Assembly (NCBI GenBank): GCA_965645245.1
Contig: OZ287080.1
Coordinates: 310,001-374,000, forward strand
Length of the DNA: 64,000 bases
Source: Massalongia carnosa
Taxonomy: Eukaryota
Direction: 5' to 3'
The notes beneath the pieces are model-generated. The model had not been told where the DNA came from, searched no databases, and saw only the letters and a program-made list of their open reading frames with translations. The translations under genes and the position numbers were made by a program. Numbering within the stretch: position 1 is the stretch's first letter; every line of letters starts with the position of its first letter. Shown here piece by piece: positions 4,901-36,400 of this stretch.

Positions 4901-4977
4901 GGTTATCTTTTCTATAGAACATTATTATTTATAATAGTAGCATAGCTACGCATAGAGCAATACATACAGCTTACATA

Positions 4978-5875: not shown

Positions 5876-5910
5876 TATGTTATCCAATCTGAAAGATCTC
5901 TGGAATTGGT

Positions 5911-10636: not shown

Positions 10637-10755
10637 TGTTAAATAAACAGTTGGCGGCATAATGTTGAAATTACTACGGAGGTGACTGCTTATAGCAGTC
10701 ATGGCAGCCTGCAGGGCTGAGCTAGAACTAATGGGGCTAAGCGAGTATTCCAACA
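10637..10755 (-). repeat. Solo LTR (119 bp) of the TRIM family at 40494-41383
   Basis: TGTTA...CAACA termini with TSD TTCAT (10632-10636, 10756-10760). It differs from the 41265-41383 LTR at one position that I could see. Confidence 0.93.
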
Positions 10756-10934
10756 TTCATCTGGACCGAACAAACAAAAACTTTCGCACTTTTTAGCTAG
10801 CACTAGAAATTGCATTCGTTACCCATACAAGCCCTCAATAGTCATTGTGATCACGTAGAATTGCTCCCCGACTCTGTAGCTATCTTGGCCGAAAGTTATA
10901 TCGTCCCTTCTGTTGTGGCTGCATTGTGGCAACC

Positions 10935-12618: not shown

Positions 12619-15600
12619 GTGAATACACCCACTATCTGTCCATACTTCAGTACAACTGCAACAAATCTAAGAACACTGTCATGGCGGACTTCCTTCGCAG
12701 GGAGGAAAGCATGAAATACGGCATCCTGGCCATCCAGGAACCCTGGGCGGGGAACCCCTATCAACACACCACGCACAATCCGGTCAAAAATGTTTTCCAC
12801 CTTCTCTATCCCCCCGAAACAGGAGAACAAGAGCTCCCTCCGAGAGTATGCATGTTCGTCAACAAAGACATAGCAAGCGCCTCTTGGAAGGTAACCTTCC
12901 ACTCTCCCGATCTGATGACTTTGCACTTGGAATTTCCTGGCGAAACCCAGCGAGTCATCAATATCCATAACATCTACAATCCCTCCCCCTCTCAGGGAAA
13001 CTACAGCACCTTGCCAGACCTAAGCAAGGCGCTAGAGGTGGAGGGAGAACACATAGTGGTAGGGGACTTCAATCTTCACCATCCCCTATGGACTGGCGAA
13101 GACTACCATCATCAACATCCGGAGGCAGACCAACTACTGGAGATTCTCGATCATAGCGAGCTAGAACTTCTGCTCCCCCCTGGCACCATAACATACGATC
13201 ATAGATCAGCACAGAGCACGATAGACTTAACGTTCGCAACCCCCGCAGTGGCTTCAGCCGTACTCATGTGCGATGTGAGAAGAGAGTTGGATTGTGACTC
13301 AGATCACTACCCCATTGGCACAGCATTCGATACCACCACAGTTAAGAGGGCCATAAGGTCCTCTCGCATGTGGTCTAAGACTGATAGGAAAAAGCTACTA
13401 GACACGATGACAGACAAGCTCCCGGCACCTAGGAGCGTGAGCACAGTTCAAGAACTCGACAACTTGGCCCATGAGTTAGTTGAAGCTATCCAGCAAGCAG
13501 TGGAGACAGCAGTCCCACTTTCTAGAGGGTGCAATCATTCAAAACCTGGCTTTACCCCGGAATGCAAAGAGGCAGTCACCCTATGCAGACGTCTCAGGCG
13601 CAAGCATAAGGAAACGCGCTCTCTGGAAGACTGGGAAGCCTACCGAGAGGCGAGAAACAGCAAAAACAAAATCGTTCAAAAAGCTCTTAAGACAACACAT
13701 AGGGACAGGGTAGAGGAGGCCACCAGCACTCCAGATGGTCTCTGGAAGCTTGCGAAATGGGCTAAGAACAGGTCGACCCCATTCCAAGCCTTCACCCCAA
13801 CACTAATGAAAAGCGATGGCTCCAAAGTGACGGAGGCCTCGGGCAAGGCTGAACTGCTTCGCAGACAGTTTTTTCCTATCCCGGACGCGACCAATCTTGA
13901 AGACATCGCCGATTATCACTATCCAGAGCCAAATCCAATTTGCTCCCATCTCAGCTCGGGAAATAACTAAAGCCATCACAAAGGCAGCACCACTCTCGGC
14001 CCCAGGCCCCGACGGACTGCCTAATAGAATCCTCAGAGATGTGTTACCGCTCATCATGCCCACACTTGTAGCTCTGTATAACGCCAGCTGGGAACTGGGT
14101 CATCACCCCAATGCTTTCAGAGAATCCACCACGGTGGTTCTCAGAAAACCAGCTAAGGCCGACTACAGTTTGCCGAATTCATACAGACCCATAGCCTTGC
14201 TCAACACTTTAGGTAAGACTATGGAGAAGATCATTGCAACCAGAATCAATCACGCGGTGGAGACCGAGAGCCTACTCCCCAGACTCCATATAGGCGGCAG
14301 GCGAGCTAGATCACCCGAACACGCCCTCCATCTGCTTCTAGAGGCCATCCACGCAGCCTGGCTTAACAACGAAGTGGCCACAGTGCTCATGCTGGACATC
14401 TCGGGTGCTTACGATAACGTATCCCACGAAAGACTACTGCACAACCTACGGAAGAGAAGAATAGGCGGCAACATAGCTAAATGGATCGAAAGCTTCCTTC
14501 AGGAAAGGAAAACGACCATCGCCATGCCCGACTACACCTCGCAACCATTCACCACGAACTTTGGAGTCCCTCAGGGATCCCCTATATCTCCTATTCTTTA
14601 TCTCTTCTACAACGCCGACCTCATGGAAGAGGAAGGGCCCAAAAAGATGAACCTGGGCTATGTCGATGACATATCCAAACTAATTATTGGAACTTCAGCA
14701 GAACAGAACTGTAGAAATCTCGAAGCCTCGTTCATGACGAGAGAGCAGAAATGGGCGGACACACACGTCTCCAAATTTGCCCCCGCCAAATTCCAGCTCT
14801 TGCACTTTATCAAAGGACCCTCAGAGACGGATTTGAACCCCCCAGAGAGAGCTATCTCCCTAGCGGGCAAAACCATCAAGCCACAGCATACCGCCACCTA
14901 CCTGGGCGCCACATTCGACGACAAGCTCAAATGGCACGCCCATTTAAGGAAACTGGAAGCCAAAACCTCAAAGAGACTGGGGGCCCTAGGCAGCCTTGCG
15001 GGCTCCACATGGGGCACCAGTCTTGCGAGCCTTCGAAGGATCTATCAAGCCACCATACTACCGCAACTCACTTTTGGATGCTCTGCATGGTATGTTCCCG
15101 AGGGTGGATACGGGACTATCACGCAAGCAACCGCCGTGCTCAAAGCCGTCAGATCTATTCAGCGACGGGCGGCACTGATCATTTCAGGGGCATTTAGAAC
15201 AACCTCGGGCCCGGCCTTGGATATGGAGCTTCACCTCCTGCCTGGCCGGCAACGCATGGAGCAGGCAGTGAACGAGTCACTACTGCGCATACGTTCAAGC
15301 CCCCTTTACGCCATAATACGTGAGATCCGCGCCTGGACAAGCCAAGCGGACTCCCACTATCGATACTGGAGCCCTCTAGCTAAGCTAGAGTCCCGCTTAA
15401 TGACTTCGGGGAAATGCCCTCAACCCTGGCCGTTAGAGGTCATTCTTCCATTCATAGTGGAACCATGGTGGTCTCCCCCCGAAACGCACATTGCTTCCAG
15501 TAAAGAGGAAGCAATCAAAGAGCATGACAAGATGACATCAGAGCCGAACCAAATAGTCATATACACGGATGGGAGTGATAACCCCTTCGGAGTTGGTGCG

Positions 15601-16470
15601 GCAGCAGTCATCCCCAGCGACAACACACGGGTAGGAACCCGCCTCGGAACGAACAAAGAAGCCACAGTTTACCTCGCGGAACTAGTGGGCATCGACCTGG
15701 GACTGGCGGCGGCTATTGCACGATGGCAAGGGGAGATAATAACGGTTTTTGCAGATAATCAATCAGCCATCAAATCAGTAGCCGACCCCGGAACTCAATC
15801 AGGTCAGTTCATACTACGCGAGATCATTGGAAAAGTCCACGCATGCCGGGAGATGCAGGCCAGAGTCAGACTCTGCTGGATACCTGGGCATATGGGAGTA
15901 GAAGGCAACGAGATAGCAGACCAAGCAGCAAAAGAAGCATCAGGCTGGTTAGAACATGGCCAGAGTCCCTCCATCACCCACTTCGACTTCCTCGGACACA
16001 CAGTGAAGTCGGCGATAAAACGCAACATGAGGACAATGATCAGCAAAGAATGGGCTGGGGATTGGGAGGCAGAAAAACGCGGACAGATGACGAAAAAGCT
16101 CCTCCCCCAGCCCACTAACAAGGTCTTGCAGCTCTACCAGGGGCTTCACAAGTCAATGAGTTCCACCCTGGTGCAGATGAGAACAGGTAAGATTGGTCTA
16201 CGCAAGTATCTCTCAGATATAGGCCGCACCGAAACGGGCGAATGCCCATGCGGCTTCGGTTATCAAACAGTTCACCATGTGCTTCTGGAGTGCGTCAGGC
16301 ACCATCGATTGCGCATGGAGACTATCTGGATAGGCCGGAAGGTGTTCGATCTCCAAGAAATTTTTAGCACCCCCAGACTGGCCAAGGCAGCATCCAAATT
16401 CATGCTATCCTCACGTCTCCTCGGCCAATTTGGAGACGTGAGGATAGCAACCGAACAATCCACGAGTTAA
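12615..16470 (+). pseudogene. LINE ORF2 (APE endonuclease, RT, RNase H, CCHC), one frameshift near 13940
   Basis: Motifs GDFNLHH, SDH, APGPDG, GVPQGSP, YVDD, YTDGS, WIPGHMGVEGNEIAD and CPCG...HVLLEC. Confidence 0.93.
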
Positions 16471-16810
16471 CGGCAGGCCGGCTCTTGTTTTACCCCGCTC
16501 ACAGAATAGTCTCTACCATGGTAGGGCTTGCATGTATCAACACCAAGCACAGGGGCCCAGGAGGGTGGCGTTGGAGTTCTATTTATCGATTTGTCTCAAG
16601 CGGTTTGTCTCTCTGTTCGTGTCTTCTTTTCCCTCTTCCTTGCATTCACAACCCCTCGTACAGCTAAAAGAGTTTTTGTATTTTTTGTACTTTCAGCGCT
16701 TAGTGCAGCAATTCTGCCCTCAGCAGACTTAGATACCCATCCCCTAGGACACCCCCCGATGTAGTTTAGCACTCCCGCATAAGGGCCTTCGGCCCTTGGA
16801 TCGGTGTATG

Positions 16811-16834
16811 AATCAATCAATCAATCAATCAATC
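16811..16834 (+). repeat. (AATC)6 LINE 3' tail
   Basis: Six tandem AATC units directly after the LINE 3' UTR. Confidence 0.9.
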
Positions 16835-16913
16835 ATAGATCAATACCTGAAATTACTAGACATTTCTACCTAATTTGAGGTACCTTCCTATTATCTCTAT
16901 ACATACATTGATC

Positions 16914-18706
16914 ATGTCTCGACAATCTGGACATTCTGGCGGTCGACCGAAAAATGCATTGGTAGATGAGAATTTCGTTGATGTCATCATTGAAGGCATG
17001 AAATACCCTCAGCATCGTTGTACGCATTGCGGATATCAGTCTGCCAAAGTTGCTACCAGGGGTCAGCAGCATTTGCAGACATGCAATGCCTTTCAAGAAG
17101 TGCAAGAAAGAAGACAGCAAGAGACGTCTTCTAGGAGCAGCAAATCTTTGATTCAATTGCCCATCACCCCTTTGATTCGTCCCTTAAATCAAGCCCAAGT
17201 TGCGCATGCTCATCGCGCTGCTGCAATGTCCGTCTTTATGACCAATCTTCCGTTTAACCACTTCGAAAATCCCTATGTGATTGCTCATCATCAAGCACTG
17301 CATCCTGGATATAAACCTCCACATCATAAGCTCGTTGGCGGGAAATTATTGGACGAGTAAATCAGCAGTTAGATGCCTGCAGTTATCTCAACTTCTTTAC
17401 CGACGAAACGGCCAACATTAAGAAGGAACGGGTTATTAATCTATGTTGTCATGTCCCTTCATCAGCTACCTCTCGAGGGGGGGCTTTCATTTAAAAGCAA
17501 TGGCCGGCATCGCTGAGACGATGACTGCAGCTGTTCAAGCTGAGTGGATGATAAAAGGCTGTAGAGAAGCGACCAATAATCAGCTCTGGAGAGTCACTTG
17601 TATAGGAACAGATACTTGCTCTATTATGAAGGCCATGTGGTCTGAAATTCGAAAGTTTCCTGAGATAAGACACGTCTTTTTCGTTCCTTGCGACAGTCAC
17701 GGTTTACAGCTTCTTTTGGGAGACATTTTGAAGCTTCCTTTTTTTGCAGACATCATGCAAAAAGCTCAATCGATAGTGATAGCTTTTCGTGGATCGAATA
17801 AAGAATTGGCCATTCTATGGAATTTTCAGATGAAGGTAAGTAGGAATGAAATTTCAATGCGGCATCAAAACGTCATTGCTAATTTATAACTTTCAAAGGC
17901 ATACAATCAACGTCAATCACTGATTCTCAACGTTTTGACCAGATGGGGTACGACTGTAGGCCTTTTGAACTCGGTGCTAAAAAGCAAGCAGGCAATTTTG
18001 GATTATTTTCAGCAAAATGCTCCGGGCATTGATCAGGGCAGAAGTCATCCTTTAGGAACATTCGTCAACGACTTCTCGTTTTGGAAAAAGCTGGCCATCG
18101 TACAGAAAATTCTTGATCCCATACATAAAGCACAATAAATGTCCGAGGCCGAGGGGCATAAACTGTACGCGGTGACTGCCAATTGGAACAGGCTTCGATC
18201 TCACCTATATACAATGGCCAAAGAGGATGAAGATTCTGAGATGGATTTGCATCACATTGCAGAGATAGTTTGGGAAGATCGATATCTCAGTCAAATAACT
18301 GAACTTCATGTGGTAGCAGCTCTGTTGGTTCCTCAGAATCATAACATTCAGGTGATTGGAGTATCCACGTCGCAGGCATTTTTCTCTATCATGCATAGAT
18401 TCTTTGCTGAATATCTGAACGTTGAAGAAGCAAAGTCGGCAATGAAGCAATGGCTTTCTTTTCGAAATCAAGAAGACGGTTTTTATCCTGCCTCCGAATG
18501 CTGGACATATCAAACGGATTCGGAGCTGTTTTGGAACTTTTCCAGAAGCTTTGCTTTTGATCTCAGCAACATAGCTAGAAAGGTAATAATGCTGCCTGCT
18601 AATTCGGTGCTGGCAGAAAGAAATTGGTCGGTCATGAATTTGATCATGACCAAAAGTCGGAACTCTCTACATTCCATCAATGTCGATAAACTCATGTTTA
18701 TTTACA
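16914..18706 (+). pseudogene. hAT transposase pseudogene (BED finger, DUF659-like core, dimerisation domain)
   Basis: CTHC...HLQTC, TDET, GTDT, CDSHGLQL, TRWGT and AERNWSVMNLI...RNSL. Has stops and frameshifts, a probable intron at about 17836-17898, and is cut off after KLMFIY. Confidence 0.85.
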
Positions 18707-19058
18707 CTAGTAGAGTAGGAGATACATAAAATTGTACGCAAATTGCTAACAAAATAAAGTATCTTTTCCCCACTTTCTATCTTCCCGCTTCTTCCGCCCG
18801 TAGCTAATCCCTGTGTCTGTCAGTTGGGCCAACTGACACGTATTAAACACTTCCCGATCGGGTTAGTCAATAAACATGTTTAATACATAAGCCTGGGCTT
18901 GACATATTCAGCCTTATGTGGATATCATTCAGCCCATTCAGCCGCGCAACAATAACAGCTTGACTGATGCTTTCTGTACCACTCATTTCCAAAGCCAGCC
19001 TCTGCACATTTCCTACCAGGCTAGTTGTAAATGTAGAAGAAAGCTAGGACCTTCTATC

Positions 19059-22000
19059 ATGCCAGATAAAGATTTATGCCTATTATCTCTTGATGGCGGT
19101 GGAGTGCGAGGGCTATCGTCACTCGCAATCCTCAAGCGACTGATGGAGATCATCAATCCGGATGCGCCGCCGAAGCCATGCGAGTATTTCGACATGATCG
19201 GAGGGACAAGTACCGGTGGATTGATTGCTATCATGCTAGGTCGTCTTGAGATGAATACCGATGAATGTATCGATGCCTATGTCGCATTGTTCGATCAAGT
19301 GTTTAAAAAAAAGCCGCATCGTGTCACAATAAACGGACACGTGCAGGGGAGATTCGACACGGAAGAGCTGGAACGGTCGATTCGAGAAATCGTAAAGCGG
19401 AAGGAGAAGGCAGGGGAAAATGCTCTCCTCAAAGGATCAGAGAATCAGCAATGCAAGGTGTTAGTGCTTCGAAAGTTGCATTTACACGTATAATTCAAGT
19501 GATACTAATGAAAGCTAGATTTGTATGCGCTCTGAATAAAGAGACTGCCGACACAGTCCTTTTCACATCGTATCCTTCTCGAGGATCATCAGATATGTAC
19601 CATAAAACACGAATTTGGGAGGCAGCTCGAGCCACATCTGCCGCATCATCCTTCTTTGCTCCAGTTAAAATTGGCCAGTTTGAAGAAGAATTTGTCGATG
19701 GGGCTGTGGGGGCTAACAATCCTGTCGCACATCTTTGGAACGAGGCCAAAAGTGTGTGGTCAGATGAAGCGCTTGAGGGAAACATTAAATGCCTGATATC
19801 TATCGGTACCGGTGTTCCATCCTTGGATTCTTATGGCTCAAGCCTCTTCGAGATTGCAAAAACGTTGAAAGACATTGCAACAGAGACAGAAAAAACAGCG
19901 GAGTCTTTTCATCGAGCGCATTCAGATCTCGATGATGGGAATCGCTACTTTCGTTTCAATGTTTCTCATGGGCTTGAGAATATTGGACTCGAAGATGCAG
20001 CACAGAAGAACAAGATCATGGCCACCACAACCCGCTATGTAGCTTTGGAAAGCGTGATGAAACAAATGAAGCTGTGTGGAAATAATTTTTCAACACGAGA
20101 ATGTGCGTCAATGTTGGCTTGATAATTCTTGAGTTACTAAATCCTTGAATAGACACTGGTTCATATAAAGTGCCATTCAGTTTGAAAGGCTTACCCCGTG
20201 TACCCAAATTCATAGCTCGTGATCAGGAGATGAATGACCTTAAGGAAAACCTTTTTCCCAAGCCAACTCGTGAGACTCGCCGGAAGGTGTTCGTTTTGCA
20301 CGGACTTGGCGGCTCCGGCAAGACTCAGCTAGCAATCGAGTTCGCTCAAAGATCACAGAAGATTTTTAGTTCTATTTTTTGGCTAAACGGCGATAGCAAG
20401 GAAAGTGTACGTCAAAGTCTTGCACAGATTGCTCAGCAATTGCCCAAAGATCAGATACCGGATTCATGTAGAAAATTCTCTAAAATATCCCCTGAAGAGC
20501 TAGATGAAATTATTCGCAATATTCTTATTTGGTTCAATCAACATGAAAACAATCAATGGCTTCTCATTTTCGATAATGTCGATCGTGATAATTCTCCTGA
20601 GGTAAATGATCCTCAATCATATGATGTGGAAGATTTTTTCCCGGGAGCCGATCATGGTTCTATTTTAATCACAAGCCGATTACGACAGCTTCGACAACAC
20701 GGGCAGGACCGGCAACTTGGAAGGATGAGCGATCTACAAGGAGCAGAAGTATTACGAAGCAGGATAGGACGATCAGTTGAAGGTAATGAAATTCAAGCAA
20801 CAGTCTTAATCCAATTTACTAAGCATTATATAGGCCTTGATAGGATCGTCGAGAAAGTGGGTGGTCTCCCACTTGCACTTGCTCATGCAGGCTCCTATAT
20901 CCACGGAACGACTACAAGTGTGAACGACTATATTCGATACTATGAAGAGACTTGGGAGAAGCTTCACAACAACAAAACGACCCGATTAAAAGATTATCCT
21001 CGTAGCATTGTATCTACGTACACCATTTCCTATGAATATGTGAAACGCAATGACGCGAGCGCTGCAAAATTGCTTAATCTGTTTGCATATCTCGATCATT
21101 CAGATTTATGGTATTCTTTATTCGCACCAGTACTTGACGAGAGCATTATCTCAAAAGAGACATTACCTATCTGGTTTTCATGTAGCATGAAGACGGAATT
21201 TGATTTTACACAGAAGATTCAAATACTGCTGGATTACTCCTTGATAGAAACACGATATGAGAACTCATCTTATGCGATTCATCCAATTATACATGACTGG
21301 TGTTTTCACTTGAATCTAACCTCTAACGACGAGATAGCTTCTTTAGCAGTTTCTGTAATCGGTTCCGCATGTCATTCCACTGGTAGTTCAGCAAACTGGC
21401 TGCATCGAAAACGACTGGCTGGTCATTGTAGTTATGTTCACTTCTGGATTGGAAAAAAACCTCAAAATCTCGAAAGGAATATGAGATGGGAACAGGTATT
21501 ATATTCTTCGTATCATGCTATTGGCTATTTTTCAACAGACCAAGGCAAGCTGAACGAGGCCGAAGATATGTATCTGCGGGCATTGACAGGAAAGGAAAAG
21601 GCCTGGGGTCCTGATCACACATCAACGCTCGCCACAGTCAACAATCTAGGGCTTTTGTATGCAGATCAAGGCAAGATGAACGAGGCCGAAGAGATGTATC
21701 TGCGGGCATTGACAGGATACGAAAAGGCCTGGGGTCCTGATCACACATCAACGCTCGACACAGTCAACAATCTAGGAATTTTGTATAAAAATCAAGGCAA
21801 GATGAACGAGGCCGAAGAGATGTATCTGCGGGCATTGACAGGAAAGGAAAAGGCCTGGGGTCCTGATCACACATCAACGCTCGCCACAGTCAACAATCTA
21901 GGGCTTTTGTATGCAGATCAAGGCAAGATGAACGAGGCCGAAGAGATGTATCTGCGGGCATTGACAGGAAAGGAAAAGGCCTGGGGTCCTGATCACACAT

Positions 22001-25000
22001 CAACGCTCGACACAGTCAACAATCTAGGAAATTTGTATAAAAATCAAGGCAAGATGAACGAGGCCGAAGAGATGTATCTGCGGGCATTGACAGGATACGA
22101 AAAGGCCTGGGGTCCTGATCACACATCAACGCTCAACACAGTCAACAATCTAGGAAATTTGTATAAAAATCAAGGCAAGATGAACGAGGCCGAAGAGATG
22201 TATCTGCGGGCATTGACAGGAAAGGAAAAGGCCTGGGGTCCTGATCACACATCAACGCTCGACACAGTCAACAATCTAGGAAGTCTGTATGCAGATCAAG
22301 GCAAGATGAACGAGGCCGAAGAGATGTATCTGCGGGCATTGACAGGAAAGGAAAAGGCCTGGGGTCCTGATCACACATCAACGCTCGACACAGTCAACAA
22401 TCTAGGGCTTTTGTATGCAGATCAAGGCAAGATGAACGAGGCCGAAGAGATGTATCTGCGGGCATTGACAGGAAAGGAAAAGGCCTGGGGTCCTGATCAC
22501 ACATCAACGCTCGACACAGTCAACAATCTAGGAAGTCTGTATGCAGATCAAGGCAAGATGAACGAGGCCGAAGAGATGTATCTGCGGGCATTGACAGGAT
22601 ACGAAAAGGCCTGGGGTCCTGATCACACATCAACGCTCAACACAGTCAACAATCTAGGAATTTTGTATAAAAATCAAGGCAAGATGAACGAGGCCGAAGA
22701 GATGTATCATCGGGCATTGACAGGAAAGGAAAAGGCCTGGGGTCCTGATCACACATCAACGCTCGACACAGTCAACAATCTAGGAATTTTGTATAAAAAT
22801 CAAGGCAAGATGAACGAGGCCGAAGAGATGTATCTGCGGGCATTGACAGGAAAGGAAAAGGCCTGGGGTCCTGATCACACATCAACGCTCGACACAGTCA
22901 ACAATCTAGGAAGTCTGTATGCAGATCAAGGCAAGATGAACGAGGCCGAAGAGATGTATCTGCGGGCATTGACAGGATACGAAAAGGCCTGGGGTCCTGA
23001 TCACACATCAACGCTCGACACAGTCAACAATCTAGGAAGTCTGTATGCAGATCAAGGCAAGATGAACGAGGCCGAAGAGATGTATCATCGGGCATTGACA
23101 GGAAAGGAAAAGGCCTGGGGTCCTGATCACACATCAACGCTCGACACAGTCAACAATCTAGGAAGTCTGTATGCAGATCAAGGCAAGATGAACGAGGCCG
23201 AAGAGATGTATCTGCGGGCATTGACAGGATACGAAAAGGCCTGGGGTCCTGATCACACATCAACGCTCGCCACAGTCAACAATCTAGGGCTTTTGTATGC
23301 AGATCAAGGCAAGATGAACGAGGCCGAAGAGATGTATCTGCGGGCATTGACAGGAAAGGAAAAGGCCTGGGGTCCTGATCACACATCAACGCTCGACACA
23401 GTCAACAATCTAGGAAGTCTGTATGCAGATCAAGGCAAGATGAACGAGGCCGAAGAGATGTATCTGCGGGCATTGACAGGAAAGGAAAAGGCCTGGGGTC
23501 CTGATCACACATCAACGCTCGCCACAGTCAACAATCTAGGGCTTTTGTATGCAGATCAAGGCAAGATGAACGAGGCCGAAGAGATGTATCTGCGGGCATT
23601 GACAGGAAAGGAAAAGGCCTGGGGTCCTGATCACACATCAACGCTCGACACAGTCAACAATCTAGGAAGTCTGTATGCAGATCAAGGCAAGATGAACGAG
23701 GCCGAAGAGATGTATCTGCGGGCATTGACAGGATACGAAAAGGCCTGGGGTCCTGATCACACATCAACGCTCAACACAGTCAACAATCTAGGAATTTTGT
23801 ATAAAAATCAAGGCAAGATGAACGAGGCCGAAGAGATGTATCTGCGGGCATTGACAGGAAAGGAAATGGCCTGGGGTCCTGATCACACATCAACGCTCGA
23901 CACAGTCAACAATCTAGGAAGTCTGTATGCAGATCAAGGCAAGATGAACGAGGCCGAAGAGATGTATCTGCGGGCATTGACAGGAAAGGAAAAGGCCTGG
24001 GGTCCTGATCACACATCAACGCTCGCCACAGTCAACAATCTAGGGCTTTTGTATGCAGATCAAGGCAAGATGAACGAGGCCGAAGAGATGTATCTGCGGG
24101 CATTGACAGGAAAGGAAAAGGCCTGGGGTCCTGATCACACATCAACGCTCGCCACAGTCAACAATCTAGGGCTTTTGTATGCAGATCAAGGCAAGATGAA
24201 CGAGGCCGAAGAGATGTATCTGCGGGCATTGACAGGATACGAAAAGGCCTGGGGTCCTGATCACACATCAACGCTCGCCACAGTCAACAATCTAGGAAGT
24301 CTGTATGCAGATCAAGGCAAGATGAACGAGGCCGAAGAGATGTATCATCGGGCATTGACAGGAAAGGAAAAGGCCTGGGGTCCTGATCACACATCAACGC
24401 TCGACACAGTCAACAATCTAGGAATTTTGTATAAAAATCAAGGCAAGATGAACGAGGCCGAAGAGATGTATCTGCGGGCATTGACAGGAAAGGAAAAGGC
24501 CTGGGGTCCTGATCACACATCAACGCTCGACACAGTCAACAATCTAGGAAGTCTGTATGCAGATCAAGGCAAGATGAACGAGGCCGAAGAGATGTATCTG
24601 CGGGCATTGACAGGAAAGGAAAAGGCCTGGGGTCCTGATCACACATCAACGCTCGCCACAGTCAACAATCTAGGGCTTTTGTATGCAGATCAAGGCAAGA
24701 TGAACGAGGCCGAAGAGATGTATCTGCGGGCATTGACAGGAAAGGAAAAGGCCTGGGGTCCTGATCACACATCAACGCTCGACACAGTCAACAATCTAGG
24801 AAGTCTGTATGCAGATCAAGGCAAGATGAACGAGGCCGAAGAGATGTATCTGCGGGCATTGACAGGATACGAAAAGGCCTGGGGTCCTGATCACACATCA
24901 ACGCTCAACACAGTCAACAATCTAGGAAGTCTGTATGCAGATCAAGGCAGGATGAGCGAGGCCGAAGAGATGTATCTACGGGGCTCAAGCGGCTTACCTG

Positions 25001-25089
25001 TGCGAGGTATGACAATTCTAGGCAGGACAAGGCTGGATGACATATTCAAACGTCAAAATGAAATCAGATCAATACCGTCTGAAAGCTAG
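19059..25089 (+). CDS. Fungal NLR: patatin-like phospholipase - NB-ARC - TPR (PLP-1/PaPlp1-type architecture), about 1956 aa
   Basis: Exons 19059-19459, 19519-20102, 20153-20782 and 20834-25089 have GT..AG introns with CTAA-type branch sites and join in frame (5871 nt). Patatin motifs DGGGVRG, GTSTG and DGA; P-loop GLGGSGKT; Walker B LLIFDNVD; GLPLAL; TPR array. Confidence 0.93.
21538..24981 (+). repeat. Coding tandem array: 27 full 126-bp (42-aa) TPR units plus a partial 28th
   Basis: Unit starts at 21538 and 24940 differ by 3402 = 27 x 126. Units are near-identical. Confidence 0.97.
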
Positions 25090-26054
25090 TTGAATCTTGC
25101 TGGCAATGGTGGAATTGAAATTCTATCGTTCGGTTGAGAGGGAACTTGAAGGTAAGGGGCGTAGGGGCGCAGGGGCGCAAGGCGTACGGGGGAAGTTTCA
25201 AATTTCTTGGCATCTTCTCTCGCTGTGCTAAATCGGATCATATAGGAATTGAAAGAGAGTAGGGATTTAAAATGGAGTAGTGATTGAAAAGAGATAGGGA
25301 CTAAAAAGCCCTAATCATTTTAAAGCCTCGGGCATTTTTTCTGGCTGAAGATATCATGTTTCACAGGAGTTTGATATCGTTTTTTAATATTGCTACTATT
25401 GTACATAACGGTCTAGATAGTGGCCCCAAAGATAAAACGATTATCTCTGACTTCATGTGTGTTGCGCCGAGATGCTCTCCATCTATAACGCGGTACAGTA
25501 CATGTATGATTTAGACAGCCATGTTAGATGAATGTTAGATGGAAGCAGCTATCCTTCGTAAGAATACAGTGATTGATAGGTAAGGTCAGCATACGCATTA
25601 TTGCCCCCGAAGTGAGCGACCCAAGTCTGACCCGTCTATGGCCGATGGTCTGGTCCGTGATGATAAGTCTTTAAACAGAAGGGACATTGTACGTATACTC
25701 TTAGGCTATTCCATTCGGTCGCTGTTGCAAATGGTATGGTAGCTATGATTTTGAAGACGGGATGTTGCGAGGGAGTAGAGGAGCCGAAATTAGGAGCTAG
25801 AGCGATACGAGAGTTGATGCTGATGATGACGCAGCAGTCATAGGCTACAAGGAGCGAAGAACCCATAAGAACCCGAGATGGTCATGAGACTTACCATTCG
25901 ACGTATCGAAAACAGCAGAAGGGTATGGAATTAGTCAAGCTCGATGCCGAACCGAAGGTTTTCTATGGGGAGGCAACTTATTATGGCCGCTCGTAAGGTG
26001 GTGACCTCAAGAGGAATTTATGTAACCAGTCTGCACGCAAAGGCCGAATGACAG

Positions 26055-28265
26055 TCAAGTGGGTGTCTTGTGAACCAAATCCGCATGGTTCTGCAAGTGC
26101 ATTGTGCTTGTCAAAAAATCTTGACACCTTGGATGAAGGCATGCGATCGGATGACCGTCTTGGTGATGAGGAAGGTGTTTTACAATGGAAGTGCTTTTTC
26201 AGATCGTAGCGGCTGTGGAAAGACTTCAGACGTGTCTCGGTGGGTAGCGCTACACAGCCGAGGCAAAAGATACATTGAGTGGGTTCGCATTCAATCGGGA
26301 TGGAGTCTGAAAGAGAGGCCGGATCGAGGACAGATGGTGGTGTCAGATGCCGTTCCTTGATGACCGACGCGGAAAGTTTTGAACGACGTGGACGCTTGCC
26401 TTCCTGCAAGCGACAAAGGGCTGTCAAAGCATTGATCGCTTCCACCCGCCGTTTGCACTCTTCCTCTGGGGATGACGTCGCGAAGGTGAGGAGGGTATCG
26501 ATGACCCGGACACGCTCCTCGAAGACGTAATCCTCTGCCTTCGCCGTCTCCAGTTCTTCCGACGGCAGTCCTTTCAGCTTTCGTTGAATGTCGATCACCG
26601 GCTGCTCCCTCTTATACCTCGCTTTGGCCTCTTGTAAAAGAGCCTCCTCTGCCGCCGTTTTATGTTGCGATGAGCTTGATACGCCTTTTGGTACTTATTC
26701 TACACTGATGTTCCCTTCATGCTCGCGATTGGTCCATGATTGTCTTTGATAAACTGGAACATTTTCTTTTGCCTCCGGCGAAGGAGTCTCACCTCTGCGT
26801 GACGATCGACCTGGGCTTTATGGGCGTCATTGAGCTTCCGAGGCCGACGTCGATCAATCGTACGACTCATTTCACTGGCGAGTCGCATCAACGCAGTTTA
26901 CGGCTTCAAACCACGATAGGCGGCCCCGGTATCACTTGTGATATACCTCGAGAGATAGCTTTTTAAAAACACGGTGGAGTTGTGATGTTGCAAAATTAGA
27001 TTCCGTTGCGATTCGCTGATGAAGCCTGTGCAAGGGTCAGCGAAAAGCTCAAAAGAAGATTGACAGAGGTCGTATTACACACTTGCTGTTGTCGAGAGCT
27101 TCGCTATTGCCACGTCGAAAGATGTATGAACCGGTGGGAAGCTTCATGCTGGTGACGCTTTCAAGGGTTATCATCCGTGAGCGAAGAGTACTGTCAGGCA
27201 GAGCTTTGTCATCCGAAATTCGAACCCCGATCACGGTGAATTTGGATCGGCGGAAGAGGAGAACGTGTAGCATCGTTTCCTTAAGGGGAAACGGCAGCTG
27301 TTTCTGTCCCGGGGGGATCCGGAGACGGAATAACTGTTCGGCAGAAATCAATTCGGGAGCGGCGAAGGCCTGATCGATAAAGATCAAAGTGAGTAGGTTC
27401 AGACGAGGACAAGCAGCAGGCATGGTTCGTCAGGCTCGTCAGGAATCCTGAACTTGTTTCTATGATACTTGTCAGTCGTTCAGCGAAACTGTCCGTCTCG
27501 ACGAAGAAAGCACAAAAGGGCAACACGAACGTTTCTTTATCGCCTAGATAGCCCTTCGTATTCTTGAATGCGATTTCAATCAACCGTCGAGGAAGCTCCC
27601 CTCCTTCGAGATCCGGAAGCAAGGTGATCTTAACATCTTTGTAACACTACACCCAAGAGGGCAGTAGGACGGTTGTCTGTGATTCCGGCTAGCTGCATGA
27701 TCAAGGCTAGTTGTACACGGTGCGCTCGTGATCAATGACGATCTCGACGGAGAGAAACAATGTCTTCAGGAGCCCGAACTCGTCCTCGGCCCGCATGATG
27801 AGCTTCTTCTTCTTCTTCTCAGTCCTTAACCCATGCTTTAGAGCGAGCCGTTGTCTCGCCTAGTACTGGTTAATCAATAGAGGCGTAGAATGGGGCTCTC
27901 GTACCCCGTGCATCTGGCTTTTGATAAGCGGGTCGATCTCTAGATAGCCAGTCTCTTTCTTTTGCACTAGGCAAAAAACATTCCAGTATGTTTGCAGGGT
28001 ACTAGCCGCACTCAGCCGATCTTTTCGAATGGAGAGTAGCCAGTCGAAGAAGACGTAGAGGATGTTGATAGAGATCTCCTTGAGAGTCATGACGGGGTTC
28101 TTCCCAGTGAATTCGCAATATCTGTCAGCCTCGATCATATTTCGCCAGTCCACGATAGTAGTAGTAGCATCTCCTTACCAATACCAAAGGTTCTTAATCC
28201 AGCTCTGTAGATCCTCGCTGCTTTCCTTGTAAACTCGTTCAGGGAAATTAGAGTCGACGAGCGTG
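26055..28265 (-). pseudogene. DUF3435-type tyrosine recombinase (Starship 'captain'-like), decayed
   Basis: Minus-strand fragments in order: FFDWLL...STLQTYW, QLAGITDNRP, KNTKGYLG, DQAFAAP...LFRLRIP, YIFRRGNSEALD, QRNLILQH...FLKSYLSR, MSRTIDRRRP, and CIFCLG...LKKHF C-terminal zinc finger. Intron at 28122-28178. Several frameshifts and stops; no clear ATG. Confidence 0.85.
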
Positions 28266-30949
28266 GACGATAGGTGATCGACGTGAAGGAGGGACGGCGA
28301 AAATGAAAGTGGGAGAATAAGAGGGTGGGAAAGGCGAAGATGAAGGGTAGAGGGACACGAAGAGAAAGGTCGTCAGAGACGATGGGAACGGAGGGGAAGC
28401 TGAGCAGAACAGCCGATTCTGGAGGTCGGGGGGCACGATGAAATAAATACCTGGTGTCGGACAAGGACCATGAGGACCAGCTGAGTGATGATGCTTGAGG
28501 CATGAAACGCTCGACGTGGTGAGGTGATGCGCAAGAGCGACCGGGGACGGGTAGGGCGGCGGGAAAAATCCAGCAATATAGAAGCTGAAACAAATAATGT
28601 GAAGAGAGAAGCTGCAATTTATGATTTGAAAGTGGAGGACTGAGCGCCTTGAGGTCTACTTTCGCGTTAGCAAGTGCGTTCTAGACGTGCGAACTAGCTA
28701 ACTTATACTCGATATGCGTTTGAGAAGAGAATTTTGTTATGTGGCTTTTAGATGGCAGATAGTCTTTAATTATAAAATCTTATAAGTGTTCCTCACAGTG
28801 ATGAAGATGAGAGATGGACCACTGCATTTCATTTCAGGCTTGTTTTCTCTGCCCACAAAAAGGTCAGTAATGTTTTGATCTCGACAATATAGGCACACAT
28901 TAACTCACTTCTCAATGACTCTTAGAGGCCATCTCTTCTATGTTTGCGAATAAATAACACACCAGGCTGTAACTAAATAATAAGGGTGTTTACATTGATA
29001 TATGACCTCGGTATAATCACACATGTTAAGATGAAAGGCAGCAGAAACGAGATTAAAGAATCTAACAACCTGGCGAGAGATGGAAGTGCTTCAGAAGGAG
29101 AGAGAGGTTTAAATAGACTTTGCATATACGGCGAAGAAAGCTTCTTTCTATATGCTTTCCGATCTCGTTCTCCAGACAAAGTCATCATCCTGCGCCCCTA
29201 ATCTCAACAGAGCAGAATACATAGTCATCGCACATTCTTGTCCAGAACCACTCCAGCAATAGTGAGCTGCATACTTTATACTAGTCAGTAGATGTTTCAT
29301 GACTAAAATCATTGGCTGACGTAAAGAAGACCGAGCCCATAGGGATCATAATCCCATAAGCTGCCCTCACAGCGAAGCAAAGTATCATGTACGTCACAGC
29401 TGTCTCCGTTGAGGACGTACATGAAAACCGGGGAACCGTACGGTCTTGGGCAGATTGGAGCTGAATTTCGGGTGAAACTGGCCTCAGGGGATAGAGCAGC
29501 AGTGACGCACATATCCGCTTGAGACTCTATAAAGTCCTCAGTTTGAAACAAGATCATCAATCTGGAAGACTTTGTATACCCTAAACCTGCTAACAGCAGC
29601 GAAGGATGTCCTTTGATGTCAGAAATTGATCTATCGAATTGACGGATGAATTCTGCTTGCTCTGAGATTGAGTTGTCGAAGAGTGAGATAGCCGATGGAG
29701 GATATTGTCTATTACAATGTATTTCAACTCTGCTTTCTCTGTAGGCTATGATCTCGCGGTGGAATCATCCTGCAACCTTCAATGAAGCGACTTTGAAACA
29801 AAGGACTCAATCTTTATGGAACTTGACGTGTATCTTCTTGATTTTAATCCTTATATTTATTTTTATGATCCTTGACTGACTACGAGTTATTGATGAAGGC
29901 TTAAAGTGTTTGGAATACTCGCTTAGCCCAATTAGTTCTTGCTCAGGCTGCAGGCTGCCATGACTGCTATCCTCTCGCTGGCACGAAGGCATCACCCTCC
30001 CCCACTAACTATAGATGGTTTAGAGCTCCCGAAACCTTAATTGCCCACCAATCAGGTCAAGTACTTGCTACCCCTATTTGACCCTTTTTGACAGAACGCC
30101 CAATCAACTACTACCTTAAGGGCGGTTGGGGGTATTCGGACATGGTCTTGAGATGGTCTCAAGATCCCGGACATGTCTTCGCAAAACTAGGTACACCGGA
30201 AGGTTCCCGGTTTGTATGTTTTTTGAGCGCTTTCCTGATTGAGATGATTCAACATTATCCTGCACGTGTAAGATAGCTTAAAATTCTGCTTGTGTTTGGT
30301 GAGAAATATCTGCAGATCATATAAAGTCCGATATCATTTGAGAAATACGATGGTCTTGAAAAGAATATATCTCAGTGAACATTCGTATTGTTATGAACAG
30401 TGCCTTCCATTAAAGAGCATCTGACAATGATTTAAAGATCGTCTCAGTTTTGACAAGATCTCAAGACTTTCAAGATCGTATTCCGGATAAAACGATCAGA
30501 AAACAATCCTATAAAAGAGATATCACGTCCATGCAACCTCGTTACAGCTGAGTTGTATTCGAGTTCACATGCTGTATTCGCCCAAATGATGATTAGGGAA
30601 ACAAGTTATTAATTTAGTGACAGCTTCTAATTTACAGCTCTATGAATGCTATCATCCTCATGCCATGTTTCCCGTTCTCGTTGCTGTCTCGCACGATCTA
30701 GTCTTGAATGGCTCCATCGAGTCATTCCCGTACCTCCTCTCACAACATGTATGAGACCGATGAAACAAGGCAGATAAGAGACGTGCCTTGAGGACCTGAA
30801 GAATAAGACTGTTAGCTTGAATTGCAATATGCGCAAAGAACACAACGTACCAAGCGACCATGTAGAAGAAAGGGCAGCCTGACGCAATAAATAAATTAGT
30901 CTCAGTTCTTTCATACAAGTTTGAATGCGATAGATCAATCACCGAATTT

Positions 30950-32630
30950 ATGATGGAGAGTGTCGGCAAAAATCAGCTGTTCTGACCTGACAAACCTTCT
31001 CGCCTGAGGAGATTTCAGAGGAGATTTCTAAAACGGCCTTCTCGGAAACGTTCTTTTCGGAGACGTCTTTCTCGGAAATGGCCTTCTCGGAAACGGCCTT
31101 CTTCAAGAGAGTCTGCTTTGGCATGACTCTGGGTTCTCTATCGTCTGCTAGCTGTAGTTGCATCATCATTGTCAGCAGATGGGAAGAACTCTCACAAAAA
31201 TTCTGCAGCATTGAGTATGCTCAAACATTGCTTGACATGTTGTTCTTCCACCCGCAATTTAGCTTTGATGGCATTCGACACTTTGCTTGGTAATTTATCG
31301 TAAGTGACGTGAGGACTAATCCTCATATATTGCTGATCTTGACCAAACAGAGCATGAAAGAGTAGCCTCAACGCTCGATCAAGTATTTCAACGTCTTAAG
31401 TCCTCGGCAGTGTAGATTCTTGTCGGTGACAAGCTCAACAAGTGTCGCAAGTTCATTTCATCTTGATTGTATTGCTCCTGCTCCATTGAAGTTTTTTTGC
31501 TGTAATTTTGTCTCACTTCTTGATCGTTGTCATCTTCAAAACAATATCTTTCAAGGCAGTCATCTCATCTCCGTCTTCATCACTTTGAAAACCATCACTA
31601 TCATCCGATGTCACCTCGAATTCTTCGTTCATCTTGCAGCATTGTATCCGCGAATCTATCAGGTCTCTAACGTTTTTGGGATGCAAGATTCGTGACTGTA
31701 CTTTCGAGATCAATGTTCATTAAATCTTGCACCGTGATAGCTAATCTACTGCCGGTCTCCTCGTCAAACTCGACATTCATCGGATTATTCGAATCCTCTG
31801 TGGGAAGAAAACTCATTTCCTTCAGAATCTCGTGTCCTCTCTGACTCTCGTGTGCCTCTTTGACGTATTTATTCGACTCATTCAATAAGTCGACAACCAG
31901 GTTCTGCACCTCTGACGAAAAGGATCGAGTGGCTAAGTCCACCACGGCCTTGTCTGTTTGCTTGGAGTCTCGATATTGATCATGTGAGTCCTTTGTCACA
32001 ATTCGAACAGCCAACACCGGTTCCGTTTGAGAAACCTGCTTGAAAATGCAACGATTAGTCTTTCGTATCGGTATGAAGGAATATCACGCTCTTTTCAGAT
32101 AACATACCCGAATTACCCTAGATCAAGCCTGAATTTCTGAAAGTGCATTGATGGCTGGCGTTGTCACTAAAACCCGACAACAACATCGATCCAGATTTAT
32201 TCCTTGTGCCGACACCTGATACATTATTATCAAAATCAGCAAGGAATCTTTAGGATCGTTGAATCTTTTGACAAGATTCACGCGCTCTAAATCCGTCAAT
32301 TCAGCGTTTAACACTTCGGTCTCCACGTATGCAAAAGTACACACACTATCCCAGAAAAAGGCGTTGAGTGGTACATCTCCTGTAATCAACAGCTTTTGTG
32401 GCTTGTCCGTAATGATATGAGGTAACACACAAATATGAATTTGATATAGTATGTATCTCATGGTGGGAGCACCGTAGGTCAGAAATTTGAGTTTTTCCGA
32501 ACCAGTAGTAACATCAGAGTCTCCTTCTCGTTTCACAAGATTAATGATATGATGAGCAGTCACGCCTTTTGCTCGAAATCGGTTGATATCGTTGATCAAG
32601 ATGTTATGACCTATTTTTCGAAGCATGCGG
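30950..32630 (-). pseudogene. SNF2/SF2 helicase C-terminal domain relic
   Basis: ERVNLVKRFND...LIIMYQVSAQGINL...EIQA*SRVIR resembles helicase motifs IV-VI. Followed by acidic segments and a 15-bp (xSEK) repeat at about 31020-31105. Multiple stops. Confidence 0.6.
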
Positions 32631-33499
32631 TCGAGTCTACTGAGAAGAAGGGAGGCACTCGCGAGAGTTAAATGTCATAATGGTGCTATGATGTGTGAGA
32701 AATTATTGGCTTCAGCTTTCTGAATGGCTATGATTTGTGGTTTCTCCGTCTTCTTGTCCTTTCAATCTTTTATGGCTTGAACAAATTCCCTGCATTCATA
32801 CATTAGCTTTTATTTGCTCCTCATATTCATATCGATATGAAGGATAAGTCAATCGGGCGTGAGCTCTATGTACTCATTGAGACTCCTCTGCTTCTTCTTC
32901 TCGATATGACTCATTCTTGAAAAGCTTGGCATGAGTTTTCAAGTTGTCATTCGTCATCTTCTTATTTATATCCTTCTTTACTGCTCTCCTCGTTTTTCTA
33001 GACGTGATCGGGATCGCCTGAAAAAAGGTAAGTTAAAAGCTTTAGATGAAGATATCATAAGGAATAAACATTTTCTTTCATGATGTGGATAAGTAGAGGC
33101 TGAAACCTGTGATAGTGTAATGTGTGATGAGGTTGTATCTCAAAATCAAGTCAGGCGATCATATCAGTTTAAGAACTGATGATCAAGAAGAGATCGATAG
33201 TAGTACTCGGATGAAGAAGGAATGAGCAACAGGATTGAAAGAATAAATCAATGACGAATGAGAATGAAGGTAAAGATGAGAAGAAAGATAAAGATGAGTA
33301 GAAAGGTAAAGATGAAAGAGGATAGATTAAGTGAAATGAAGATCAACGTTGATCTTTGGGGCTAACGAAATTGTTGTCCTAAATCCACACAACATCAGTT
33401 CAGTCGTCATGACTATTTTTTTACAAAAATTTGACTCCCCATATACAATGTAACAAATCCATATCTGATTCTTTGTTACTGTTTAAACTTATTGTCGAC

Positions 33500-36400
33500 A
33501 CGACGACATGTGAGGATACTGGCTCATTAAGCGTACGATTAACAGGAACAATTTAGATCTTATCTGGATCAACAAAGAATAAGGGGATCACTCTATCCGT
33601 GTCTGTAAGTTGAAAGATGCTCAAATTTAGGACCTCGTCTTTATAGGAAGCGGTCTTTAGCAGTCGAATCCAAAGGAACACTTGCTGAATATTCTCAAAT
33701 GGTAGACAGTGAGTATAAATTTGTCGAAGCTGAGCATATGTGCCAGAGCGGAATCGAAGAAAGTCGCCAGTATGCAATGAGAAACGTTTGCCGGTTGACC
33801 TGACAGTAAAGGAGCATTGTTCATACCAGTACAAAGGCTTTTTTCCCCATTGAACGCCATTAAGGCCATACCCGGTCATAGCAGTCTGCATCAGTTGCCT
33901 AAATCGGAGCTCTGTGGAGTTTGTTATTCTGATAGGAAGACCTTGATTTTGTGCATAGGAAAGTTTGAGCTTTTCCCGCACTGCAGGTTTTAAATGTGAG
34001 GGAGATTCTAATAGATAATTATTTGTCGACTCCTGATCGTCTGTTTGTGGGCGATCCCCGTAGAATAATAGACTTTCAAGGAGAGCCGGGCAGTTCCGCT
34101 TCAAACGAATCATTTGCAGAGTGATCTCCGGATCGGTATGACGAAATGAGCCATTCAAAAAAGCGAAGAAAGTGAAGAGGATAGCGGCTTTCACTAAAAG
34201 CTGTCGCTCTGGCTTTCGATGATTTGTTGATAATACGGCTTTGCTTTAAAAAAGCGATGTTTGTCTTCTCCAAAGAGAACATTAACGTTCCACAGAACAT
34301 CATACTCCTGCATGACTGTTTCGGAATGCATACCGATATGAAAGTTTAGCAGCTTATCGGCCTCGCCATTCCGAGTAGTCACTGATGCAGAAAGTCTCAT
34401 GTCGGGATCTGACACAAGATTACCAACGGAGTGTCTGTATCACCAATAAGGGAGTTTATGAATTTTTCAGAAATCGATGCTCGTCTAGAACTGAAAGATA
34501 AATCCTCAGTGACAGACTAACTTTTCTCGTTGTCTTTCTTCTTTTCTTGTCGTTTTGGATTTTGTGCTGCATTCATCAGACCTAGAAAACATTGTCGAGC
34601 ATTGACGATTTGACAGTAAACTTCTTGACGATCTTTGAGGGATAATTCGAAAGACGAGAATAACGTGTTACTCCATGCGAGTTTCCCAAAGCAAAACACT
34701 ATCAAATCTTCATCTGAAGCGCAATGGCGACGTTCTGTAGGAAACTGAACTTTCAATCCATTTCGAAAAGGCTGTCGTACATGACGGTTTCTTAACCAAC
34801 AGCGAAGAAGTAGAGGTATTACGACTGAGGCACGAGCGCATTCGCTCATACTCCATGAGGCAATATGAATAGCCGGAGACTGTATTCGGCCCCAGCCAGG
34901 TGGAAACGGAAAACAGTGCAAGGCAGCTGTAAACTATTCAGCAGCTCGTTTCGTGAGTATTTTCGTGTAAAGAAAAGGGTACAATCTTCGTACTAGTCCG
35001 TAATACTCGCTATGAGCCGGATCCGGTGGACAACTCATGATAAGATCAAGCGCCGGGGTTAATGTCTGAAGCGCAGAAGATTCGGGTTTGAGCCCATTTC
35101 GTGTAAGATATGCCAGTCTCTTTGTCTTTCCTTTTATTGCTAGGCTTTTTTTTCGTATAGCCAACACCTCATGATGATAACGACCATGAAGTAGAATATC
35201 CCGCTGCAAATCTCCTCGATTATGGAGGCCCGCATCACAAAAGCGACAACAATAGTTGGCACGTGGCCCAAGAAACCCTCCGGAGGCTTGCTGCTGCTTC
35301 ATATCACCAAGATATGCTAGAATCGGAACCCAAGCCGCTTGTTTCTGTCCATTGATTTCAAGAATGCAACCACGATCCATGTTTCCCAAGCTGGTATGAA
35401 GACAGTTCATCACATCTTTAAACTCGGATCCGTGCGGGCCAAGAGCAATGGTGTAAGCATTAAAACACTTTTGACGTTCCGAGGCGGGCAAGCCTGCTGG
35501 CATGGCATAGACACCAGTGATGGAACGATACATGTTTCGATATAACCCGAAATCGTCGATGAAAATGACAAGGGGATATGACTGAACTCCTTTAATTAGC
35601 TGTGAGATTAGGTACTCTCGACCAAAGACTTCTAATTCTAATTCCGCTCGAATCGGTGTTGAAAGATTGATTGATCTAAGATCTCCTCGCGTGACGTTGA
35701 ATATCTGACGAATTAAGACAGGCGTTGTAGACCTACAAATTGCAACATCGAAACGGCGAGCTAGAACATGCTCGGATAAGACATCTTGATCCGCGTCTTC
35801 TATCAAAAGCAACTGATCTTCGGGCCAGTCAAACGTGACCGGAATTGAATATTCGTTGACGTTCTTTCTACTTATCAAAGGACGAATCCTGACAAGAGTT
35901 TGACCTAGCAAAGATCGCGATCTTTGATCACGTCCAAAAAATATGACCTATCCGCAGTGACTGTCATGAATAATCCCACATTTATCATTGCCACAGCGAT
36001 ACTGCACAATGTCAGAGGGGAAAATGGATGAATCGGGAAATCTCGCAAAATCATTGGAACATGTACGAATAGAAGAAACCCAACTGTTTGAATGCCAGTA
36101 TTCCGAAGGACTATCAACGATCTCTGCCATACCGATATGAATGTTTCGTTGAGTTGTGGCTGAAAGTAAGATACTGATAATAATTCGAGCATCAAAGTAA
36201 TAGACGTTGGCTTGAGCCGGTCTTGGTGTTCCGGTGGGTTGTTTTTCTCGTCGTACTGATACCGCTGCCTTCTGAATGGATGGGAGGGGAAGGCGCTTAC
36301 GGCACCAGGATTGCAAAGTTGATAGTCGCTTTGGCAAATTTCGCACTTCATGAGTGTCTAGCAATTGCAAAACTTCGAGTAGGCCATCATAGGTGCGTCG

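Follow-up and report, generated by a model that had tools for sequence, protein, structure and literature searches.

A decayed DUF3435 recombinase beside an intact patatin/NB-ARC/TPR receptor gene: a degraded Starship-like region in a Lecanoromycete-type fungus

A 64-kb stretch of the Massalongia carnosa assembly (contig OZ287080.1, positions 310,001 to 374,000; called the window below, with positions counted from its first letter) contains a decayed tyrosine recombinase of the DUF3435 family next to an intact gene for a NOD-like receptor (NLR) with a patatin/NB-ARC/tetratricopeptide repeat (TPR) architecture. The term Starship-like region has been used for a DUF3435 gene co-located with a DUF3723, ferric reductase (FRE), patatin-like phospholipase (PLP) and/or NLR gene but lacking target-site duplications (Gluck-Thaler et al. 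2022, PMC9156397). Because it places DUF3435 beside a PLP/NLR gene without such duplications, the window qualifies as a degraded Starship-like region; the fungus is of the Lecanoromycete (lichen-forming) type. The recombinase relic probably descends from a captain of the Starship class. We also infer, at even chances, that the NLR gene was part of this captain's element and was mobilized with it in this genome.

The recombinase is a minus-strand pseudogene (Table 1). Three of its open reading frame (ORF) fragments match PF11917 (DUF3435), at 27,049-27,429 (E = 1.4e-27, 97.1 bits), 25,981-26,694 (E = 3.1e-15, 56.5 bits) and 27,281-27,646 (E = 1.8e-6, 27.6 bits), all above the 25.8-bit cut-off, which bears out the family assignment proposed in an earlier note on this DNA. 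A homology search with the best fragment returned 20 proteins, every one carrying DUF3435; the named homologues all belong to Lecanoromycete lichens (Teloschistes, Heterodermia, Xanthomendoza, Gallowayella, Xanthoria and Polycauliona) and are 46-68% identical to the fragment. Using tblastn, residues 33-679 of a 679-aa lichen homologue (P0003) were mapped from 28,246 to 26,058 in three frames, at 48-66% identity.

Intact relatives of the recombinase contain four short introns, near residues 55, 128, 236 and 363, and the relic has gaps at these places. The other breaks in the relic are therefore real lesions. The relic lacks the ATG and codons 1-32, changes frame at least five times (near 27,722, 27,640, 27,411, 26,645 and 26,180) and carries two nonsense codons in frame (26,900-26,898 and 26,702-26,700). 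The motifs listed in the earlier note were all located: NRP (27,674-27,666), FRRG (27,120-27,109), LQH (26,993-26,985), SYL (26,960-26,952) and the C-terminal Cys/His finger, which is kept as CIFCLGC...HFHC followed by C..HPRC..H..H at approximately 26,280-26,070. The gene is thus a dead member of the captain class, and the decayed minus-strand recombinase that the earlier note had described is confirmed.

The NLR gene is intact. Described previously as fully open, it is so after splicing of its two introns; only a single GT-AG splice combination gives the open frame, and the resulting exon ends agree with tblastn alignments of the Vezdaea homologues P0027 and P0025. The predicted architecture also stands, with Pfam detecting the patatin domain, the NB-ARC domain and 28 TPR_10 stretches (E = 3.7e-277). 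In the translation, the patatin motifs DGGGVRG, GGTSTGG (GxSxG) and DGAVGANNP (DGA) are intact, as are the P-loop (GLGGSGKTQLA) and Walker B (LLIFDNVD) motifs of NB-ARC. A database comparison of the NB-ARC part ranked four paralogues from Vezdaea aestivalis highest (54-59%), followed by proteins of Usnochroma (51%) and Pycnora (49%), and no close orthologue was found.

The TPR array is highly homogeneous. Its 27 units share a mean pairwise nucleotide identity of 95.7% (minimum 89.7%), and only 11 codons vary among them, 9 of which change the amino acid. Several of the variable codons differ by two or three nucleotides (AAG/TAC, CTG/CAT, GCA/AAA), and the variation clusters at unit positions 1, 13, 19, 32, 39 and 42. 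In published fungal NLRs, 42-aa TPR repeats can be highly conserved and under positive selection, and patatin is nearly always paired with NB-ARC (PMC4986451). The window NLR fits the class of repeats more than 85% identical defined by Dyrka et al. 2014 (PMC4986451), in its 42-aa unit and in its few, mostly non-synonymous variable positions; it departs from the published description in no point of substance, and only the length of its array is unusual.

Table 1. Features of the window, with the recombinase relic and the NLR gene first. Positions count from the first letter of the window.
Feature	Position	Strand	Evidence and remarks
DUF3435 tyrosine-recombinase (captain-type) pseudogene	26,058-28,246	-	Pfam, tblastn, intron map of intact relatives
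Patatin/NB-ARC/TPR NLR gene, intact, 1,973 aa	19,059-25,089	+	Exons 19,059-19,459, 19,519-20,102 and 20,153-25,089; introns of 59 and 50 nt
Patatin-like phospholipase domain	19,083-19,954 (approximate, intron 1 inside)	+	PF01734, E = 2.2e-15 and 2.5e-8 on two ORF pieces
NB-ARC domain	20,221-21,033 (approximate)	+	PF00931, E = 3.5e-8, residues 25-295 of ORF 20,149-25,089
Tandem TPR array	21,536-24,982	+	27.4 units of 126 bp (42-aa units); Tandem Repeats Finder score 6,166, 95% matches
Spacer between convergent stops	25,090-26,057		No transposon or Pfam domain detected
Remnant of family 5' leader	28,302-28,424	-	nhmmer, positions 295-398 of a 450-position model
Ty3/Gypsy pol	204-3,347 and 8,910-10,662
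Long interspersed nuclear element (LINE) endonuclease, reverse transcriptase, RNase H	5,911-6,633 (-) and 12,549-16,470
Tad-like LINE	11,284-16,470		Endonuclease and reverse transcriptase/RNase H frames long and open, 473 and 879 aa
Decayed hAT transposase	16,860-18,729	+	Dimer_Tnp_hAT E = 3.9e-7, weak DUF659 match (Pfam); ORF layout
Long ORF run	33,556-37,122	-	230, 138, 337, 271 and 116 aa; no Pfam match
pogo-type DDE_1 pieces	38,663-39,940 and 42,645-43,073
Ty3/Gypsy retrotransposon	43,011-49,481		Two 300-nt long terminal repeats, 100% identical; gag and pol frames open, 451 and 1,358 aa
Copia element	51,655-56,358		1,567-aa polyprotein frame without interruption

Convergent in orientation, the two genes leave 968 bp between their stop codons, which matches the distance of about 1 kb given earlier. 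Published captains are DUF3435 recombinases with cargo behind them; they always sit at the 5' end of the Starship and read inward, and AT-rich insertion contexts are frequent (PMC9156397; Gluck-Thaler & Vogan 2024, PMC11162782). Since captains hold this position, an NLR gene located 3' of the captain lies on the element-internal side. The window thus shares with Starships a DUF3435 recombinase placed beside a patatin/NLR gene, with the captain reading towards its putative cargo. PLP and NLR genes are recognized auxiliary genes of Starships, including one in a lichen fungus (PMC9156397, PMC11162782, PMC13486527), and together with DUF3723 and FRE they are frequent, not obligatory; in the window, PLP and NLR form one fused gene instead of two auxiliary genes.

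A competing explanation is that chance alone has brought the two genes together within an island of transposons. The NLR gene would then be a resident, evolving fast in a repeat-rich compartment and never mobilized by the captain's element, and the relic would be what is left of an element that landed beside it or lost its cargo later. We consider this tentatively, at somewhat below even likelihood. The arrangement just described argues against it, as the orientation rule puts the NLR gene on the captain's internal side with no transposon between the two, and so does the published association of PLP/NLR genes with Starships (PMC9156397). Within the spacer, an 81-aa ORF (25,636-25,881, minus strand) contains a C..C...HH string that faintly resembles the C-terminal finger of captains; this ORF has no Pfam match even at E values up to 1 and no tblastn match to the captain, and the likeness is probably due to chance.

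To place the relic within its family, metagenome contigs were scanned with an alignment of 11 recombinase homologues, yielding 30 loci (L001-L030) that represent approximately 18 distinct sequences. Between lichen genera and families, most captain proteins have 83-92% identity (the values are 62% and 70% for 2 of the 10 compared), a hint that the family has been active recently or has spread horizontally. Intact members are ∼680 aa long; their catalytic region is preceded by ∼230 aa, and Phage_int_SAM_5 is matched weakly (E = 0.0076). When the window was compared with the 30 loci by blastn, the captain coding part (26,030-28,141) aligned at 64-69% over near-full-length matches, and no flanking similarity was found.

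Members of this family behave as mobile elsewhere. Ten of the 13 aligned copies become similar abruptly, at the motif CGRRGGGACGR that lies 406-464 nt upstream of the ATG; L007, L009 and L016 lack this shared 5' terminus. The terminus, which lies, e.g., around 9,530 in L022 and at 9,523 in L019 and L025, is followed by a short hairpin-like CTGCC...GGCAG. DNA before the terminus has a GC content of 12-38%, and DNA after it of ∼50% for at least 10 kb, in six of the seven loci profiled (the exception is L018), so that the elements of these relatives are probably longer than 12 kb. The AT-rich DNA adjoining the 5' ends is a common insertion context of Starships (PMC11162782). L019 and L025 share one gapless block of 12,140 bp (9,523-21,662 in each) at 98.3% identity. 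The block starts exactly at the terminus motif, reaches 9.4 kb past the captain and holds a DUF7924 gene and several ORFs without a Pfam family. The flanks of the two loci do not align, except for one 475-bp repeat at non-corresponding upstream places, and the true 3' end of the block may lie beyond the examined flank. The abrupt 5' terminus, the AT-rich upstream DNA and the L019/L025 block support the conclusion that the captain family behaves like a cargo-carrying element.

The same alignments bear on the possibility that the recombinase is a small, single-gene Crypton-like transposon of ∼3.2 kb without cargo, in which case the differing downstream DNA would simply reflect differing insertion sites. 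In most distinct pairs, the alignable part does begin at about -475 relative to the gene and stop somewhere between +3 and +800 (L001 against L022, -475 to +367; L017 against L022, -475 to +476), and a 17.9-kb recombinase-only candidate was dismissed as a false positive in PMC13486527. However, the family copies have no common 3' end: similarity stops anywhere from +3 to +9,398, scaling with relatedness (+367, +476, +516, +741 to +801, +2,451 and +9,398), and a fixed 3.2-kb element therefore fits poorly. The L019/L025 pair shares 9.4 kb beyond the gene, for a total of 12.1 kb. Furthermore, AT-rich DNA flanks the copies on the 5' side alone, whereas 3-kb insertions into AT-rich DNA would be flanked by it on both sides. 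The window recombinase also differs from Crypton recombinases in its DUF3435 domain, and PMC9156397 places the DUF3435 recombinases in a clade apart from them. An element without cargo is consequently very improbable.

The downstream neighbours were compared in the 13 non-redundant loci that have at least 3 kb of downstream sequence. The convergent captain-NLR layout recurs among these relatives. In L022, L023 and L024 (one sequence, sighted three times), a convergent NB-ARC/TPR gene begins ∼1.65 kb past the captain stop. L009 is collinear with this locus, at 83% for the captain and 87% for the 3' part of the NB-ARC/TPR gene, and L010 shares sequence next to the same gene. L017 carries an open NB-ARC/TPR ORF 6.8 kb downstream of its captain. 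The TPR units of the window align to L009 at 75-77% (blastn). The recurrence of the convergent layout in a related captain sub-lineage speaks against chance neighbours, and two to three independent NLR cases in 13 loci exceed the rough, uncomputed estimate for chance (a few per cent, given one NLR per several hundred kb). Other captains have other neighbours: a PNP_UDP gene (L018) or an ankyrin gene (L016) ∼1 kb downstream, a deaminase gene in L020 and a kinase/KilA-N gene in L011. This variety of downstream neighbours, and the fact that the closest relatives of the window NLR are not captain-linked, speak in turn for chance neighbours.

A more specific scenario is that one lichen DUF3435 captain sub-lineage habitually carries a single convergent NB-ARC/TPR receptor immediately after the captain and acts as a compact "NLR shuttle" that spreads receptors for cell death between genomes. 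The window would then be a fossil shuttle; its receptor would have acquired a patatin domain as executioner, would have been retained by the host and would still be diversifying. The captain-NLR layout of L009, L010, L022-L024 and the window, together with the 83-92% identity of most captains, is compatible with this scenario, which we nevertheless judge unlikely.

Several observations weigh against the NLR gene having been part of the captain's element, and many of them favour chance neighbours. The first concerns the relatives. At least three of them (L001, L004 and L008) have ordinary-looking downstream genes (TatD, MutL/MutS-like and a metabolic fusion) and no NLR. Stop codons make the L022 NLR a pseudogene, and no patatin domain was detected in it, so that it and the window NLR are different cassettes. 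In addition, the database relatives (49-59%) are nearer to the window NLR than the captain-linked L022 NLR is (48% and 37% identity to the window NB-ARC). The second concerns the surroundings. The whole window is a transposon nest, and a recombinase relic beside any gene could therefore be a coincidence. Nearly every long ORF in it is transposon-derived, and the hAT and LINE elements directly to the left of the NLR gene are unrelated insertions piling up there. The captain is heavily decayed, whereas the NLR is pristine; persistence of cargo after degradation of the element has already been described (PMC9156397). Neither a DUF3723 nor a ferric reductase turned up among those window ORFs that were scanned with Pfam, and the window contains no 5S rDNA or tRNA target.

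The third concerns the element ends, none of which was found in the window. The 5' terminus motif of the family is absent near the captain at up to 3 mismatches. Two 16-nt patterns for this terminus gave one 3-mismatch match each in the window, at 49,116 and 31,753, far from the relic and no more than in shuffled sequences. To the eye, the string TAACG... (28,669-28,665) looks like the terminus; no program supported it, and it is not claimed here. Upstream of the relic, a remnant of the family 5' leader (Table 1) was matched weakly (E = 0.021 when the whole window was searched and 1.8e-4 when one strand of 1.1 kb was), at the expected place and in the expected orientation. The 5' end of the relic element was not located as such, and extrapolation from the leader remnant puts it roughly at 28,560-28,760.

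Repeats gave no boundary either. A search for exact direct or inverted repeats of at least 12 bp between this 5' zone (28,550-28,900) and the left part of the window (1-19,058) found none, with 0.4 expected from shuffles, and no repeat pair brackets the relic and the NLR gene among the 20 direct families listed (of 23) or the 3 inverted pairs, all of them listed. Direct repeats of 4-5 bp would be recognizable only with an empty site. In these respects the window differs from a defined Starship: its captain is a pseudogene, and searches for direct repeats, terminal inverted repeats, an empty site and a 3' end found none of these; any 3' end may lie beyond the window. The minimal element of about 10 kb that the earlier note had envisaged is not borne out, as no end, repeat or empty site delimits it and the relatives are probably longer than 12 kb. 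Delivery of the NLR by a Starship, its central proposal, fares better in part: the DUF3435 class of the recombinase, the cargo-like behaviour of its family, the internal-side position and the layout in relatives all agree with it, with delivery by this particular element about as likely as not.

Public sequencing runs provide a further view of the locus. Eight runs hold part of 18,801-28,800, with 46-54% of the sampled words present in five of the eight; any joint presence of the NLR gene in the runs compared below would rest on these shares. Contigs of four runs (X1, X5, X6 and X8, from three studies, one of them perhaps the source of the window) were compared with the window over 24,983-44,982, starting just past the TPR array. 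These contigs are short (at most ∼1 kb) and differ from the window at shared sites. The captain stop is bridged by contigs of X1 (25,936-26,430) and X8 (25,644-26,240), and the presumed 5' zone by contigs of X1 (28,563-29,562), X6 (28,336-28,767) and X8 (28,210-28,705). The relic is joined to the same DNA on both sides in the four runs, and the empty site that the earlier note had suggested looking for did not appear: none of the 15 joints listed, of 37, leaves the relic out. The sampled material thus has the relic at one and the same place, which neither shows nor excludes mobility and says nothing on its absence from other material. Contigs of X1 and X6 also match the window rightwards from 27,738 and continue leftwards as unrelated sequence, near one of the relic frameshifts; this breakpoint could reflect a second partial copy or a structural variant within the relic.

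Among the closest published counterparts is Tangerine, a Starship of 85-102 kb carried by Xanthoria parietina, a lichen fungus, whose boundaries were set against an empty site (PMC13486527). Like the window, it resides in a lichen-forming Lecanoromycete, has PLP and NLR auxiliary genes and is filled with nested transposons, with nested LTR/Ty3 and LINE/Tad1 elements making up more than half of it (PMC13486527). It occupies the same locus in all genomes sampled, as the window relic does in the sampled runs, and its current mobility is described as unproven (PMC13486527). The same source reports further recombinases within 100 kb of PLP/NLR genes, without defined boundaries. The Tangerine captain is only 283 aa long and has no core-binding domain (PMC13486527), whereas the window family is ∼680 aa long with an extended N-terminal part and a weak SAM-like match. 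This length and the weak Phage_int_SAM_5 match argue weakly against membership in the Tangerine captain family.

For the receptor itself, the counterparts are PLP-1 of Neurospora crassa and HET-Z1 of Podospora anserina, which have the same patatin/NB-ARC/TPR architecture (PMC12881547). Cell death by PLP-1 needs patatin activity and the nucleotide-binding motif of NB-ARC, and its trigger is an incompatible SEC-9 (PMC12881547). The window NLR keeps the patatin catalytic motifs and the P-loop, but no SEC-9-type SNARE gene was found among the window ORFs scanned; Pfam detected no SNARE domain in them, and both neighbours of the NLR gene are transposon relics. NLRs of the PLP-1/HET-Z1 type have a polymorphic SEC-9 SNARE partner, whose gene is genetically linked to that of the NLR.

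The remainder of the window is fungal DNA that is nearly all transposon-derived, as judged from Pfam scans of its ORFs, with Ty3/Gypsy, Copia, LINE, hAT, pogo and CACTA/Plavaka-like elements represented (Table 1). Ordinary-looking genes are limited to an APH-like ORF and a P450 gene near 59-63 kb. To the left of the NLR gene, hAT, LINE and Gypsy elements are nested as far as the window start. The hAT relic, the first of these, adjoins the NLR promoter upstream and has in-frame stops at 17,887-17,889 and 18,136-18,138. The Tad-like LINE on this side and the Copia element on the other may have been recently active.

To the right of the relic, the ORF run at 33,556-37,122 is probably the decayed transposase of a large DNA transposon; protein-atlas features place one of its ORFs near Transposase_21 (CACTA)/Plavaka clusters with a score of 0.94-0.95, which serves as a lead only. 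A pogo/Tc5-type element at 38,075-41,462 is bounded by 61-nt inverted repeats (38,075-38,135 and 41,402-41,462) that are 95% complementary. Contigs of all four public runs join 38,074 to 41,461 or 41,462 and skip this element, and this empty-site form corresponds either to a polymorphic element or to a second copy of the surrounding sequence. The Ty3/Gypsy retrotransposon at 43,011-49,481 looks like a very recent insertion and is nested in another element with 192-nt inverted repeats (41,501-41,692 and 50,544-50,735).

Taken as a sequence of events, the preferred reading is that the NLR gene would have been carried as part of the element DNA and would have outlived the captain-class recombinase, which died in place. 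By analogy with PLP-1 and from the domain architecture, the 27-unit TPR solenoid may bind a ligand, using for this the few positions that vary within its units. Ligand binding would release a P-loop-dependent NB-ARC switch and the NLR would oligomerize, after which the N-terminal patatin phospholipase would execute membrane damage and regulated cell death.

Starships with PLP and NLR genes have already been described, including Tangerine from a lichen fungus (2026), and the window adds little to the papers of 2022-2026. A by-product, a captain family with a sharply defined 5' terminus and many metagenome copies, is perhaps more useful than the finding in the window. If the NLR gene did arrive on the element, the locus would add a further example, and another one from lichen fungi, of immune or allorecognition receptors that a Starship has moved and that persist although their vehicle has decayed, and it would support the published idea that birth-and-death cycles of Starships seed accessory genes in their hosts.

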